From the sequence record PV763039.1: a stretch of DNA of 64,000 nucleotides; one strand, given 5' to 3'. Positions 51,745-62,251 of the stretch are shown here, piece by piece (within the stretch, counting starts at the first letter, position 1; each line of letters starts with the position of its first letter). The notes below the pieces were generated by a model, which had not been told where the DNA came from, made no database searches, and saw only the letters and a program-made list of their open reading frames with translations. Both the position numbers and the translations under genes were made by a program. Origin of the DNA: Escherichia phage WPEC6.

Positions 51745-51773
51745 TTGACGTTCGCCAGGTGGCGGCATAATAT
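51745..51773 (+). promoter_or_regulatory. Module-A promoter TTGACG-17-TAATAT followed by hairpin gggcggcaATGGtgccgc
   Basis: AT-rich upstream tract aaaaagattaaaaag, TTGACGttcgccaggtggcggcaTAATAT, then stem-loop at about 51784-51801. Confidence 0.5.
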
Positions 51774-52040
51774 TTACCACGTAGGGCGGCAATGGTGCCG
51801 CGAAATTTTAACTGGTTCTTACAAGAAGGTCTTGACTTAAGTCGCATCTCTCCTTTCTACGATGCTGATGAGTCTTATTACAAAAATGACAAATAATATT
51901 CCGTTGAGCAGTGCAACATTGCTTCGCTTCTATAAAGCATGGATTGCCAACTATCCTGTTTCCTTCATAATCCTGAATTCTATCTAGCACCCATTGTATA
52001 CGATGTTTGTTTTTATGGCAAATATGTTTTTTATGTTTTT

Positions 52041-52272
52041 GTCAAATTCTTCTTCAATTCTAGGGTCTTCTCCTACAGCCTCTTCCCATTTATTAAAAGG
52101 TGCACCCTGTAACATATGTCAAATTCTTCTTCAATTCTAGGGTCTTCTCCTACAGCCTCTTCCCATTTATTAAAAGGTGCACCCTGTAACATACTTCGTC
52201 AAATTCTTCTTCAATTCTAGGGTCTTCTCCTACAGCCTCTTCCCATTTATTAAAAGGTGCACCCTGTAACAT
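52041..52272. repeat. Three tandem direct copies of module B1 (reverse orientation), ~77-bp period
   Basis: gtcaaattcttcttcaattctagggtcttctcctacagcctcttcccatttattaaaaggtgcaccctgtaacat repeated at about 52041, 52118, 52198. Confidence 0.85.
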
Positions 52273-53692
52273 AAATAAGACTCATCAGCATCGTAGAAAG
52301 GAGAGATGCGACTTAAGTCAAGACCTTCTTGTAAGAACCAGTTAAAATCTTTATGTTACAGGGTGCACCTTTTAATAAATGGGAAGAGGCTGTAGGAGAA
52401 GACCCTAGAATTGAAGAAGAATTTGACAGAGGATAGTTGGCAATCCATGCTTTATAGAAGCGAAGCAATGTTGCACTGCTCAACGGAATATTATTTGTCA
52501 TTTTTGTCTCCTTCATAATCCTGAATTCTATCTAGCACCCATTGTATACGATGTTTGTTTTTATGGCAAATATGTTTTTTATGCCCTCTCCTCTCTTGGG
52601 GCTTTGCCCCTCCTCCTTGTTATTTTTAACACCCCTCTCCGAAAGGTTAGGGGCTTTTTTCTTTTTATATTGCCGCCGTTGCCGCTATTGCTATTATAGG
52701 TACCTACTATGACACCGCGCGACCTTCCTCCTTACATGAAATCACCGCCGTTGCATCAGTTGGCGTGCTGTTTTACGTTGGTAAACGCTATTTATCACCA
52801 ATGATTAACAAGCTGACCGGTGTCAGCTTGTTAATCATTGGTGATAAATAGCGTTTACCAACGTAAAACAGCACGCCAACTGATGCAACGGCGGTGATCA
52901 TAAAAAACATATTTGCCATAAAAACAAACATCGTATACAATGGGTGCTAGATAGAATTCAGGATTATGAAGGAAACAAAAATGACAAATAATATTCCGTT
53001 GAGCAGTGCAACATTGCTTCGCTTCTATAAAGCATGGATTGCCAACTATCCGTCAGCTTGTTAATCATTGGTGATAAATAGCGTTTACCAACGTAAAACA
53101 GCACGCCAACTGATGCAACGGCGGTGATCTCATGTAAGGAGGAAGGTCGCGCGGTGTCATAGTAGGTACCTATAATAGCAATAGCGGCAACGGCGGCAAT
53201 ATGCAATAAGACTCATCAGCATCGTAGAAAGGAGAGATGCGACTTAAGTCAAGACCTTCTTGTAAGAACCAGTTAAAATTTAATAAGACTCATCAGCATC
53301 GTAGAAAGGAGAGATGCGACTTAAGTCAAGACCTTCTTGTAAGAACCAGTTAAAATTTTAGAAAAATGACAAATAATATTCCGTTGAGCAGTGCAACATT
53401 GCTTCGCTTCTATAAAGCATGGATTGCCAACTATCCTGTGAGCGGCACCATTGCCGCCCTACGTGGTAAATATTATGCCAGTGGCGGCGATATGTCAAAG
53501 ACTATTTTCAAAGTTTTAACATAAAAAACATATTTGCCATAAAAACAAACATCGTATACAATGGGTGCTAGATAGAATTCAGGATTATGAAGGAGAGATT
53601 TCATGTAAGGAGGAAGGTCGCGCGGTGTCATAGTAGGTACCTATAATAGCAATAGCGGCAACGGCGGCAATATCTGTAAGATTAAAAAGTGG

Positions 53693-53721
53693 TTGACGTT
53701 CGCCAGGTGGCGGCATAATAT
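53693..53721 (+). promoter_or_regulatory. Module-A promoter copy (TTGACG-17-TAATAT) with hairpin and RBS+ATG module H
   Basis: Identical promoter/hairpin followed by tcactatctggagttaagatcATGGCAACATTGCACATA. Confidence 0.45.
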
Positions 53722-55584
53722 TTACCACGTAGGGCGGCAATGGTGCCGCTCACTATCTGGAGTTAAGATCATGGCAACATTGCACATACTACAAAATTGC
53801 GCATATTTTATCCTCCTCATATCTGATCTTATCACAAAATGATATACAATTGCAAGCATTAAAAAGAAAAAAGCCCCTAACCTTTCGGAGAGGGGTGTTA
53901 AAAATAACAAGGAGGAGGGGCAAAGCCCCAAGAGAGGGGATAGTTGGCAATCCATGCTTTATAGAAGCGAAGCAATGTTGCACTGCTCAACGGAATATTA
54001 TTTGTCATTTTTCTCTCCTTCATAATCCTGAATTCTATCTAGCACCCATTGTATACGATGTTTGTTTTTATGGCAAATATGTTTTTTATGTGTTACAGGG
54101 TGCACCTTTTAATAAATGGGAAGAGGCTGTAGGAGAAGACCCTAGAATTGAAGAAGAATTTGACAGAGATTTTAACTGGTTCTTACAAGAAGGTCTTGAC
54201 TTAAGTCGCATCTCTCCTTTCTACGATGCTGATGAGTCTTATAAAAATAAAAAAGCCCCTAACCTTTCGGAGAGGGGTGTTAAAAATAACAAGGAGGAGG
54301 GGCAAAGCCCCAAGAGAGGAGAGGGCGGTGTCAGCTTGTTAATCATTGGTGATAAATAGCGTTTACCAACGTAAAACAGCACGCCAACTGATGCAACGGC
54401 GGCGATTGTTACAGGGTGCACCTTTTAATAAATGGGAAGAGGCTGTAGGAGAAGACCCTAGAATTGAAGAAGAATTTGACAAAGATTTTAACTGGTTCTT
54501 ACAAGAAGGTCTTGACTTAAGTCGCATCTCTCCTTTCTACGATGCTGATGAGTCTTATCATAAAAAACATATTTGCCATAAAAACAAACATCGTATACAA
54601 TGGGTGCTAGATAGAATTCAGGATTATGAAGGAAAGAAAAATGACAAATAATATTCCGTTGAGCAGTGCAACATTGCTTCGCTTCTATAAAGCATGGATT
54701 GCCAACTATCCATAAGACTCATCAGCATCGTAGAAAGGAGAGATGCGACTTAAGTCAAGACCTTCTTGTAAGAACCAGTTAAAATCTTCGTCAAATTCTT
54801 CTTCAATTCTAGGGTCTTCTCCTACAGCCTCTTCCCATTTATTAAAAGGTGCACCCTGTAACATGTTACAGGGTGCACCTTTTAATAAATGGGAAGAGGC
54901 TGTAGGAGAAGACCCTAGAATTGAAGAAGAATTTGACAGAAATTTTAACTGGTTCTTACAAGAAGGTCTTGACTTAAGTCGCATCTCTCCTTTCTACGAT
55001 GCTGATGAGTCTTATATATTGCCGCCGTTGCCGCTATTGCTATTATAGGTACCTACTATGACACCGCGCGACCTTCCTCCTTACATGAAATCGCCGCCGT
55101 TGCATCAGTTGGCGTGCTGTTTTACGTTGGTAAACGCTATTTATCACCAATGATTAACAAGCTGACCCTCTCTTGGGGCTTTGCCCCTCCTCCTTGTTAT
55201 TTTTAACACCCCTCTCCGAAAGGTTAGGGGCTTTTTTATTTTTCATGCTTGCAATTGTATATCATTTTGTGATAAGATCAGATATGAGGAGGATAAAATA
55301 TGCGCAATTTTGTAGGTCAGCTTGTTAATCATTGGTGATAAATAGCGTTTACCAACGTAAAACAGCACGCCAACTGATGCAACGGCGGCGATCTCATGTA
55401 AGGAGGAAGGTCGCGCGGTGTCATAGTAGGTACCTATAATAGCAATAGCGGCAACGGCGGCAATATGATCTCATGTAAGGAGGAAGGTCGCGCGGTGTCA
55501 TAGTAGGTACCTATAATAGCAATAGCGGCAACGGCGGCAATATCTGTGGCGGCAATGGTGCCGCTAATATAAAGAGGAAACAAA

Positions 55585-55731
55585 ATGAATACATCTAATC
55601 GCGCAGAAAAAATTCAATCTTCCAAGATCCGCAAGGCCTGGAATGAAGAAGTGATCCGCAAAGGCGATAAGCGCAATAAAACAAAGCGCGGGAAGAGTGA
55701 TAAATATAATTGGATGGATTTAGAGGACTAA
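55585..55731 (+). CDS. Small basic protein (not in ORF track)
   Basis: 48-aa ORF MNTSNRAEKIQSSKIRKAWNEEVIRKGDKRNKTKRGKSDKYNWMDLED after AAAGAGGAAA RBS, followed by strong terminator. Confidence 0.45.
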   Translation: MNTSNRAEKIQSSKIRKAWNEEVIRKGDKRNKTKRGKSDKYNWMDLED

Positions 55732-55737
55732 CATAAC

Positions 55738-55766
55738 AAGGGCGCATCAAGCGCCCTTTCTTTTTA
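55738..55766 (+). terminator. Rho-independent terminator
   Basis: agggcgcatcaagcgccct hairpin followed by ttcttttt. Confidence 0.65.
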
Positions 55767-55786
55767 CATGCAGAGGATAAACACAG

Positions 55787-61423: not shown

Positions 61424-61708
61424 ATGAAAAAGATGATCGCAGTAGTTGCCCTGGTTGTTGGTCTTAACGCGCCTGTACTGGCTAATGAGTTGCCGGAATC
61501 CATCACGCTAACAGATATCCAAGCCGTCAACCGGATCGGCGTTAACTATCGCCTATGCCTTGCCGCTAAAACTTTCCAGGATGGCGAGATAGAATATCAC
61601 GGATTCGAGGGTATCCGGTGCGGTGAGCTTGCACGCGACCTTAAGGAAGATCCAGACCTTAAAGCCATACCGATGACCGTAAACGGTAAAGCCTACGTAA
61701 GCCGCTAA
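61424..61708 (+). CDS. Secreted hypothetical protein
   Basis: 94-aa ORF with signal peptide MKKMIAVVALVVGLNAPVLA; preceded by ggggccgtaacgcccc hairpin. Confidence 0.5.
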   Translation: MKKMIAVVALVVGLNAPVLANELPESITLTDIQAVNRIGVNYRLCLAAKTFQDGEIEYHGFEGIRCGELARDLKEDPDLKAIPMTVNGKAYVSR

Positions 61709-61709
61709 C

Positions 61710-61844
61710 ATGAGAAAGGTAATCATCACCCTGGGGATCATAGTAGCAACGCTGGCGCTTATCCCTTTCATGGTTGAATACGTGCTAATCAGTGTTGTCC
61801 TGGTAGTCAGTGACCTACTGGAAACGGTTGGCAACTTGTTTTAA
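61710..61844 (+). CDS. Small membrane protein (not in ORF track)
   Basis: 44-aa ORF MRKVIITLGIIVATLALIPFMVEYVLISVVLVVSDLLETVGNLF immediately after previous stop. Confidence 0.35.
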   Translation: MRKVIITLGIIVATLALIPFMVEYVLISVVLVVSDLLETVGNLF

Positions 61845-61855
61845 GGAGTGATAAA

Positions 61856-62047
61856 ATGAATACAGAACAAGTTAGAAAGGTATTAGCAGCGTTACGCTAT
61901 CATAACCATAGCAAGGTGAAGAATGATCCTGATTATGTTGATTCAAGCCTGGAAGAAGACACATTGCAAGCTATAAGCCATATGCAAGAATTGTTTAAGC
62001 GTATGACAGAGAAGAACAGATCTGATTATATAGGTGACGAGATCTAA
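61856..62047 (+). CDS. Hypothetical small protein
   Basis: 63-aa ORF after AAGGAG RBS. Confidence 0.45.
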   Translation: MNTEQVRKVLAALRYHNHSKVKNDPDYVDSSLEEDTLQAISHMQELFKRMTEKNRSDYIGDEI

Positions 62048-62056
62048 TCTTTACAA

Positions 62057-62087
62057 AAACAGGGCTTGCTTTTGTCCTGTTTTTTGT
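62057..62087 (+). terminator. Rho-independent terminator
   Basis: acagggcttgcttttgtcctgt hairpin followed by tttttg. Confidence 0.55.
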
Positions 62088-62222
62088 TATGCTTATTGAA
62101 CGGGCGGCACTGGCAACAGGGGAGGTAATCACCGGAAGACCCCGCTATATATCGATAGCTAACACCTATCAAACAACAAAACATCAAAGAAATAAACTAT
62201 CAAATCTTTACAATCCCACCTA

Positions 62223-62251
62223 TTGACACCGGATCACCCTTCTATTATTAT
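62223..62251 (+). promoter_or_regulatory. Sigma70-like promoter TTGACA-17-TATTAT
   Basis: TTGACAccggatcacccttctatTATTATttatcacgtagggc; downstream leader resembles module A leader (ttaccacgtagggc). Confidence 0.5.

Follow-up and report, generated by a model that had tools for sequence, protein, structure and literature searches.

Promoter and stem-loop cassettes before small early genes of phAPEC8-like phages, and their scrambled copies in the Escherichia phage WPEC6 record

Cassettes that combine a promoter with a stem-loop, known as promoter-early stem-loops (PeSLs), have been described in the T4-type phages RB49/phi1, PST/T4 and nt-1/KVP40 (PMC2839356, Arbiol et al. 2010; PMC4122927, Comeau et al. 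2014). The stem-loop of a PeSL has no set place (five subclasses): it may precede the promoter, sit within it or overlap it, and it is read as a terminator (PMC2839356, PMC4122927). Here we describe a related kind of cassette in a 64,000-nt stretch of Escherichia phage WPEC6 (PV763039.1), hereafter the window, where a sigma-70-type promoter is followed by a GC-rich hairpin in the 5' leader of small genes. Like PeSLs, these cassettes are intergenic units in which a strong early promoter of sigma-70-like type, with A/T-rich DNA upstream of it, is combined with a stable GC-rich stem-loop, a Shine-Dalgarno sequence and an ATG. They are also repeated before many small genes of unknown function in a variable region (at least 18 cassettes in about 8 kb of AV126, the clean relative used as reference for window blocks, coordinates L004), occur as several stem families per genome with a stem consensus that varies by phage group, and are associated with gene gain, loss and reordering. 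Unlike PeSLs, they belong to a lineage of Stephanstirmvirinae and Vequintavirinae rather than of T4-like phages, and their hairpin lies downstream of the -10 at a nearly fixed distance of 10-11 nt, at the predicted transcribed 5' end and without a U-tract. Because the hairpin is downstream and fixed in place, one defining feature of PeSLs, a stem-loop upstream of or within the promoter and variable in position, is absent. Thus, the new family is a kind of mobile promoter/stem-loop cassette but not a strict PeSL, and PeSLs are its closest known analogue. The PeSL idea of mobile regulatory cassettes is thereby extended beyond T4-like phages, and the different placement of the hairpin suggests a different job for it. 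A single AV126 spacer resembles a PeSL subclass, with a hairpin (tatagcgcc/ggcgctata, L004 6463-6500) that overlaps the -10 TATAAT.

The 5' stabilizing stem-loops of the ompA and papA 5' untranslated regions (Emory, Bouvet and Belasco 1992, as reviewed in PMC3997798) offer another comparison. There, as here, a stable hairpin a few nucleotides from the 5' end (a predicted end in our case) is followed by an accessible ribosome-binding site, and pairing matters over sequence. The reviewed cases each concern one cellular gene, for which 5' ends have been mapped and half-lives measured, whereas the hairpin studied here follows a predicted start and belongs to a repeated phage module.

A description of the hairpins in phAPEC8, rV5, phi92 or Stephanstirmvirinae was not found in the open-access literature. 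The GenBank record of phAPEC8 (JX561091, coordinates L002) nevertheless carries the same 20-nt element at the same positions and before the same genes, as features named 'putative promoter determined with PHIRE' (L002 177-196, 609-628, 1463-1482, 2479-2498, 3368-3387 and 4007-4026). These 20-mers are exactly the hairpins, e.g. GAGCGGCACCATTGCCGCCC. The annotation treats the repeat as a phage promoter, whereas its sequence is that of a hairpin downstream of a separate sigma-70 promoter; PHIRE reports only repeated 20-mers, and a near-consensus sigma-70 promoter already lies just upstream. Read from their sequence, then, the PHIRE features are the hairpins themselves and not promoters. In the one annotated genome examined, the hairpin thus carries a promoter label; knowing the true layout of the cassette helps early-gene annotation and the prediction of early transcripts.

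Cassettes in the window and in related phages

Judged by its sequence matches, the window comes from a phAPEC8-like Phapecoctavirus of the Stephanstirmvirinae, with 100% identity to Escherichia phage WPEC4 and 95-97% identity to many relatives over positions 27000-51700. Family-1 hairpins, GGCGGCA-NNNN-TGCCGCC with at most one mismatch, have 14 matches in the window, all within 51785-60769, where none is expected. Family-2 arms, GCGGGAA..TTCCCG, occur at 56019, 59234, 59588, 59759 and 60154 (0.01 expected), and 17 nt before the start codon (ATG) of a gene with a TerC domain (Pfam TerC, E 1e-34), at 28883-28901, there is a variant hairpin that is one pair longer, GCGGGGAA-tag-TTCCCCGC. A preliminary description of this DNA had reported both families, and its placement of the motifs is confirmed (14 and 5 sites plus the TerC variant, chance about 0), as are its promoter hexamers, spacers and downstream ATGs. 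Its 4-nt loop for family 2 is not, since the literal 4-nt pattern has no match and the loops have 3 or 5 nt, and the 15-25 nt that it gave from the hairpin to the ribosome-binding site and ATG describes the distance to the ATG (17-24 nt) but not that to the ribosome-binding site. When all hairpins were listed with their flanks, the 14 family-1 sites showed only 6 different gene-proximal flanks and 4 intact promoters, and the 6 family-2 sites, including the TerC variant, represented 5 cassettes; the 20 hairpin sites in the window reduce to about 11 natural cassettes. A covariance model of the hairpin gave 8 matches per strand in the window, and 49 of its 51 matches in clean loci were on the gene-sense strand. 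Of the claim that there are at least 14 copies in both orientations, therefore, the 14 sites stand, but their number and orientations are largely made by the assembly.

The anatomy of the cassette was derived from 48 unique natural cassettes, which share the layout TTGACA-16/17-TAnnnT, about 10 nt, GC hairpin, purine-rich leader of 17-24 nt, and ATG. The promoters match 10-11 of the 12 hexamer positions, are all co-oriented, and have an A/T-rich upstream region. The distance from the end of the -10 to the start of the stem is 10-11 nt in 34 of the 48 (range 6-14), and that from the end of the stem to the ATG is 17-24 nt. Stems are GC-rich with 5-10 bp and a mean of -12.5 kcal/mol, and the bases preceding them are usually CAC(A/G)TA. 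In folding predictions the hairpin is the sole stable element, and the purine-rich leader and the ribosome-binding site are left open, not occluded by it. Standard E. coli start-site rules predict a start 6-8 nt after the -10, which would leave 3-5 unpaired nucleotides before the stem, and some copies lengthen the stem toward this predicted start (e.g. TTGTA...ACAA at 60577). Six clean loci contain 83 strict promoter matches, and in 58% of these a structure of -9 kcal/mol or lower begins 4 nt past the -10, as compared with 4.7% of random windows (p 1e-15).

The architecture is by no means confined to the window. In AV126, promoter and hairpin are found in at least 18 of the 21 spacers of at least 40 nt in the early array of about 8 kb, and nearly every small early-array gene is preceded by a cassette in phAPEC8, AV126, phi92, a Vequintavirus, a Henunavirus and a CR3-like Salmonella phage; beyond phAPEC8 and AV126, the same architecture was seen in phi92 (Justusliebigvirus), EduardKellenberger (Vequintavirus), Hena1 (Henunavirus) and Salmonella phage SSBI34. 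The homologous genes of phAPEC8 are preceded by the same promoter-hairpin units as in the window, and a search with one cassette sequence returned 174 phage records. On the evidence of these sequences, the cassette is genuine and widespread in two subfamilies, Stephanstirmvirinae and Vequintavirinae, and the earlier reading, in which a sigma-70-type promoter precedes a hairpin located in the 5' leader of a small gene, holds from phAPEC8, AV126 and phi92 to more distant relatives. The early array adjoins the terminal repeat in phi92 and Hena1, and the proteins encoded behind cassettes match only PHROGs of unknown function. With its strong promoter, 5' hairpin and open leader, the cassette is a compact natural expression module of two subfamilies of large coliphages that are therapy candidates.

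The 51.7-kb core of the window holds one cassette, that of the TerC gene, and a divergent promoter. The preliminary description had taken the TerC cassette as a sign that the repeat region is not contamination. The region is indeed phage DNA with native cassettes, but the order, orientation and copy number at 51.8-60.8 kb are artefactual, as discussed below.

A few sequences resemble parts of the cassette. At 13920-13965 in the window core, a cassette-like string, ttatcacataag, is followed by the hairpin AACCCCGC-atag-GCGGGGTT with no proper -10 or -35, and may be a cassette remnant. In AV126, a cassette-type hairpin, GGCGGGGAATACTTCCCGCC, stands right after a stop codon (L004 9799-9818) with no promoter before it, and a separate promoter follows and runs into the next start codon; this hairpin may be a decayed or rearranged cassette. 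The T5-like phage NBEco002 (L009 5001-5027, in the left-terminal-repeat region) has 27 nt that nearly match the family-1 cassette from the -10 through the initial transcribed bases to the left half of the stem (TATTATTTACCACGTAGGGCGGCAATG), and then a different hairpin, CGGCGG-gaagttta-CCGCCG. This match could reflect promoter exchange between unrelated coliphages or could be due to chance.

Pairing and sequence of the hairpin

Pairs were counted in covariance-model alignments; a MAFFT alignment of the 48 cassettes left the 3' arms unaligned and was not used. The clean-loci alignment had 94.3% of its cells paired, as compared with 85.6% in shuffles and 42-75% in slid controls. Five of the eight pairs were changed on both sides, in 35 cells, a result reached by none of 500 shuffles, and a second count gave a similar picture; the covariation across related phages that the preliminary description had suggested as a check was thus observed. 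Stem variants with pairing kept occur within and between genera, namely GGGCGGCA/TGCCGCTC, GGCGGGAA/TTCCCGCC, GGGCGGGAA/TTCCCGCTC, GGCGGGAAA/TTTCCCGCC and AGGCGGTGG/CCACCGCCT, along with GGGCGAC/GTCGCCC, GGGGCAA/TTGCCCC and GCCGGGG/CCCCGGC, and the loops vary as well (atgg, tag, gtggt, acaac, cggtt, aatcac). As judged from these alignments, it is structure and not a constant sequence that is conserved in the hairpin. The preliminary description had argued from a constant stem to a sequence-specific binding site. The constancy is due partly to duplication by the assembly and partly to the close kinship of the cassettes of one genome, and across genera the stems vary.

Internal G.T pairs number 18 as compared with 2 A.C pairs, and of the two strands the sense strand forms the more stable fold (p 0.002). 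This asymmetry, together with the bias of hairpin matches toward the gene-sense strand (49 of 51), points to a hairpin in transcribed RNA.

Possible roles of the hairpin

RppH and RNase E need single-stranded 5' ends, which is the accepted reason why 5' structure stabilizes E. coli mRNA (PMC3997798). The reading that we favour, at a probability of about 0.6, is that the cassettes are sigma-70 early promoters whose transcripts start with a protective 5'-terminal stem-loop, and that they serve as shuffleable one-gene modules of a phAPEC8-like myophage. Host sigma-70 RNA polymerase would start about 7 nt past the -10 of the near-consensus promoter, and the transcript would begin with its first 3-5 nt, directly followed by the GC-rich stem-loop of 6-10 bp, the unstructured purine-rich leader of 17-24 nt with the ribosome-binding site, and the ATG. 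The paired 5' end would hinder RppH and the 5'-end-dependent entry of RNase E, and in read-through RNA the hairpin would shield the next ribosome-binding site from long-range pairing. The expected outcome is that early mRNAs are stable and evenly expressed whichever gene a cassette carries. Stretches of 40-60 nt that are nearly identical between cassettes could also act as homology patches for the gain, loss and reordering of small genes, as proposed for PeSLs. Of all this, the anatomy of the cassette, its conservation across genera, the compensatory changes in the stem, the strand bias, the fixed distance to the -10 and the lack of a U-tract are observed, and the transcription start, the stabilizing effect and the recombination role are inferred. 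The fixed distance from the -10, the free sequence and the open leader fit a 5'-protection role, and thus nuclease protection, which was only one of several options in the preliminary description, is probably the better choice among them.

Gene order is unlike between AV126, phAPEC8, WPEC4 and phi92, and when AV126 was compared with phAPEC8, WPEC4 or phi92, 15 of 26 homology-block ends lay within 50 nt of a hairpin, where about 20% are expected.

Several points weigh against the protective, shuffleable module. Data on transcription starts or half-lives for this phage group were not found in the open-access literature, and a 5' end with 3-5 unpaired nucleotides may still admit some RppH or RNase E. 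The alignments behind the pair counts lean toward the modelled structure, as covariance-model alignments do, and the sequences in them are related; much of the G.T count goes back to one inherited position, which leaves the strand-asymmetry test with few independent events. Loops in Stephanstirmvirinae tend to be U-R-G (atgg, atag, tag, tgg), so a factor that reads sequence may still be involved. As for recombination, breakpoints at gene boundaries are expected in mosaic phages anyway. A PeSL-style indel, one gene between two cassettes, was sought between AV126 and WPEC4, and in the indel inspected in detail the extra WPEC4 gene has a cassette on one side only.

The main idea of the preliminary description was that the hairpin is a sequence-specific operator through which a phage or host RNA- or DNA-binding protein shuts off, processes or anti-terminates the early transcripts jointly. 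The dominance of two or three stem sequences within one genome, the mostly U-R-G loops of Phapecoctavirus and Justusliebigvirus, and the conservation of the flanks ACRTAG and TCAC would agree with such a protein. We consider it doubtful, given that several stems and loops coexist in one array, that both change completely between genera with position and pairing kept, that the hairpin ends 17-24 nt from the ATG and so is clear of the ribosome-binding site, and that part of the apparent constancy comes from assembly duplication. A lambda-type nut site (boxA with a boxB hairpin) is likewise a short nascent-RNA hairpin just downstream of early promoters, but the stems and loops of the cassettes vary, with no conserved GNRA-like pentaloop. 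Since every small gene has a promoter of its own, there is no evident need for antitermination over long distances. Inspection of the cassette flanks showed no boxA, with no dedicated pattern search made, and no boxB-like motif was noticed in the same way; Rfam gave no matches in the window at the gathering score and none at E values up to 1 in the AV126 early array. It is also unlikely, in our view, that the hairpin is a tag on all early transcripts of rV5/phAPEC8-like phages, or on the DNA, which a phage factor reads, for example to shut down or process early mRNAs at the switch from early to middle expression, or that it drives recombination of cassettes and the formation of mini-circles. 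If this were true, a PeSL-type gene-shuffling system would have arisen independently outside T4-like phages.

The role assigned to T4-type PeSLs, termination or attenuation of transcription from the upstream cassette so that each gene is isolated, has a precedent in RB49, where a PeSL stem-loop cut downstream lacZ expression as much as rrnB T1 did (PMC2839356). It would also suit an array in which the strong promoters, more than 15 in number, all point the same way and canonical terminators are almost lacking between them. We nevertheless find this role improbable for the present hairpins. They have no U-tract, the bases after the hairpin being TCACAACAGAAGAG; a sense-strand scan flagged no cassette hairpin, yet it flagged a separate real terminator (L004 7421); and a fixed distance of 10-11 nt to the preceding -10 would be pointless for a terminator of the upstream gene. 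An intrinsic (rho-independent) terminator in particular was rejected, as the U-run directly after the hairpin is missing. Finally, the hairpin might act in DNA only, either as a recombination hot spot (a palindrome or homology patch) or as a phage-specific promoter in the sense of the PHIRE annotation of phAPEC8, with no RNA function. The clustering of homology breakpoints and gene-order changes at cassettes would fit the former and the identity of the JX561091 20-mers with the hairpins the latter. Toleration of G.T but not A.C pairs and the strict strand bias, however, point to the transcribed strand, PHIRE lists nothing but repeated 20-mers, and a near-consensus sigma-70 promoter already precedes the hairpin. 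A function in DNA only therefore seems very unlikely to us. The promoters of N4 type are hairpins with a 3-nt loop used by a phage single-subunit polymerase, whereas here each hairpin has a complete sigma-70 promoter just upstream.

The assembly at 51.8-60.8 kb and individual features

Despite the 100% identity over 27000-51700, the order of WPEC4 departs from that of the window after 51700, and past 51801 no public record reproduces the same arrangement or tile order. A repeat search found copies of 77 nt, grouped in families, that recur at 77, about 154 or about 231 nt and run in both orientations. The profile of the longest exact repeat per base gave 90 boundaries between 51725 and 60747, with a spacing peak at 77 (46 of 89 spacings are 76-79), and the exact repeats at tile boundaries are 77-79 or 148-151 nt long. 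Comparison with AV126 traces the longer blocks of the window to a single co-oriented gene array, whose pieces now stand in a changed order and with inversions: 58345-59607, 59706-60063 and 60143-60595 are reverse complements of L004 2949-4213, 2665-3023 and 9156-9608, and 55549-56147 and 60747-61845 match L004 7232-7824 and 10692-11790. Adjacent natural blocks overlap by exactly 77 nt (59531-59607 equals 59702-59778, and 57903-57979 equals the reverse complement of 60747-60823), which is a signature of k=77 assembly-graph pieces. By these sequence criteria, 51802-57902 and several joints in 57903-60770 are concatenated pieces of a k=77 de Bruijn graph, and we infer that a specific assembler lies behind them.

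The commonest tile pair, A+B (73 + 4 + 74 nt), represents part of the interior of a gene that relatives carry beside the aerobic ribonucleotide reductase, and thus comes from elsewhere in the genome. The four bases between A and B (naturally ggag) show all eight A/G combinations of three sites, e.g. at 54165-54168, 56511-56514 and 57825-57828, which suggests enumerated graph bubbles of length 2k+1 or a systematic A/G read ambiguity there. The tiles share no common border sequence. WPEC1, WPEC2, WPEC4 and the window are at least 99% identical elsewhere, yet each is scrambled differently, and the records of the first three are 156-161 kb long as compared with 145-152 kb in relatives (4-16 kb longer). 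In clean relatives, each piece occurs once and all are on the gene strand. Thus, the many copies and two orientations in the window are an assembly artefact and not biology.

A real system of shuffling and inversion, or a heterogeneous population recombining at hairpins, could be imagined for the patchwork, as several block junctions are at hairpins (51801, 58345, 59607, 60063) and hairpins could promote strand switching. It is exceedingly improbable in view of the regularity at 77 nt of tile spacings, repeat lengths and block overlaps, the lack of a shared border, the gene-internal tiles from beside ribonucleotide reductase, the full set of A/G combinations at three neighbouring sites, and the different scrambling and excess length of the sibling WPEC records. 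About 6-9 kb of the flagged region is concatenated assembly-graph debris, and 51.8-60.8 kb, like the corresponding regions of WPEC1, WPEC2 and WPEC4, is unfit for gene counts, repeat analysis and comparative work before re-assembly.

Intact cassettes can be recognized both inside and outside this region. That of the TerC gene (28863..28941, minus strand) consists of TTGACA-16-TAAGAT, gtatcacatgaa, the hairpin at 28883-28901, a purine-rich leader and an ATG at 28865. Within the region, a family-2-like cassette at 55979..56061 (plus strand) has TTGACA-16-TAAGAT, CGGGAA-tag-TTCCCG and an ATG at 56059, and a family-1 cassette with TTGACA-17-TAATAT at 56188..56277 (plus strand) is identical in phAPEC8 and AV126, with duplicate tiles at 53441-53517 and 58345-58421. 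Two family-2 cassettes are on the minus strand, one at 59213..59288 (TTGACA-16-TAATAT, GGCGGGAA-tag-TTCCCGCT, ATG 59215) and the other at 59733..59818 (TTGACA-16-TAAGAT, GGGCGGGAA-gtggt-TTCCCGCTC, ATG 59735); the 77-mer 59702-59778 recurs at 59531-59607, where the gene body of the latter continues. The family-1 cassette at 60497..60577 (minus strand) has TTGACA-16-TAATAT, TTGT/ACAA flanks that lengthen the stem, and an ATG at 60499.

The remaining copies are cut, duplicated or joined. The first cassette of the early array (51745..51801, plus strand), TTGACG-17-TAATAT with a family-1 hairpin, is interrupted by the assembly junction 51801/51802 just within the hairpin's 3' arm, past which its natural continuation is TCACTATCTGGAGTTAAGATCATG. 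The patchwork of tiles of about 77 nt follows (51802..57902, both strands), with gene fragments that belong to other parts of the genome and with cassette tiles in duplicate (hairpins at 53441 and 53733); within it, 53693..53773 (plus strand) is the sole copy of the first cassette with contiguous promoter, hairpin, leader and ATG, its gene being cut after 18 nt. At 55548..55587 (plus strand), the family-1 hairpin, leader and ATG of a 48-aa gene remain and the promoter is replaced by an assembly junction. The segment 57903..58013 (minus strand) repeats, as reverse complement, the cassette whose natural place is before the gene at 60788, with the exact 77 nt of 57903-57979 in common with 60747-60823. 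The family-1 hairpin and leader of the 63-aa gene 58017-58208 lie at 58206..58264 (minus strand), the -35 being lost at the junction 58264/58265, and next to them two head-to-head cassette tiles of about 80 and 77 nt (58265..58421, both strands) form an artificial 36-nt palindrome of two hairpins (58326/58345). The family-2/family-1 fusion at 59588-59646 is likewise a tile joint. At 60043..60126 (minus strand), two first-cassette tiles are joined at 60063/60064 with the hairpin doubled (60043/60069), the inner copy preceding a 65-aa gene (MATLHIV...), and the family-2 promoter and hairpin at 60144..60213 (minus strand) have a leader cut by a junction. The window is colinear with AV126 from 60747..60790 (plus strand) onward, which carries the family-1 hairpin, leader and ATG (60788) of a 99-aa gene.

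On the other side of the array, a divergent early-type promoter at 51630..51712 (minus strand), TTGCTA-17-TATTAT with the 5-bp hairpin GCGCC-aaccag-GGCGC and an ATG, is kept in phAPEC8, AV126 and phi92. Past the array, GC hairpins of the GGGGCGGTAACGCCCC type lie between genes of the operon-like part, at 61094-61110 and 61378-61396 in the window and at L004 11041-11056 and 11322-11339 in AV126; with neither promoter nor U-tract, they may be intercistronic RNA-end or processing hairpins. Further on, at 62040-62280 of the window, a T-run hairpin (cagggcttgcttttgtcctgttttttg) precedes about 180 nt in which no gene is obvious, and then come a TTGACA-17-TATTAT promoter and the motif tcacgtagggc, with no hairpin.

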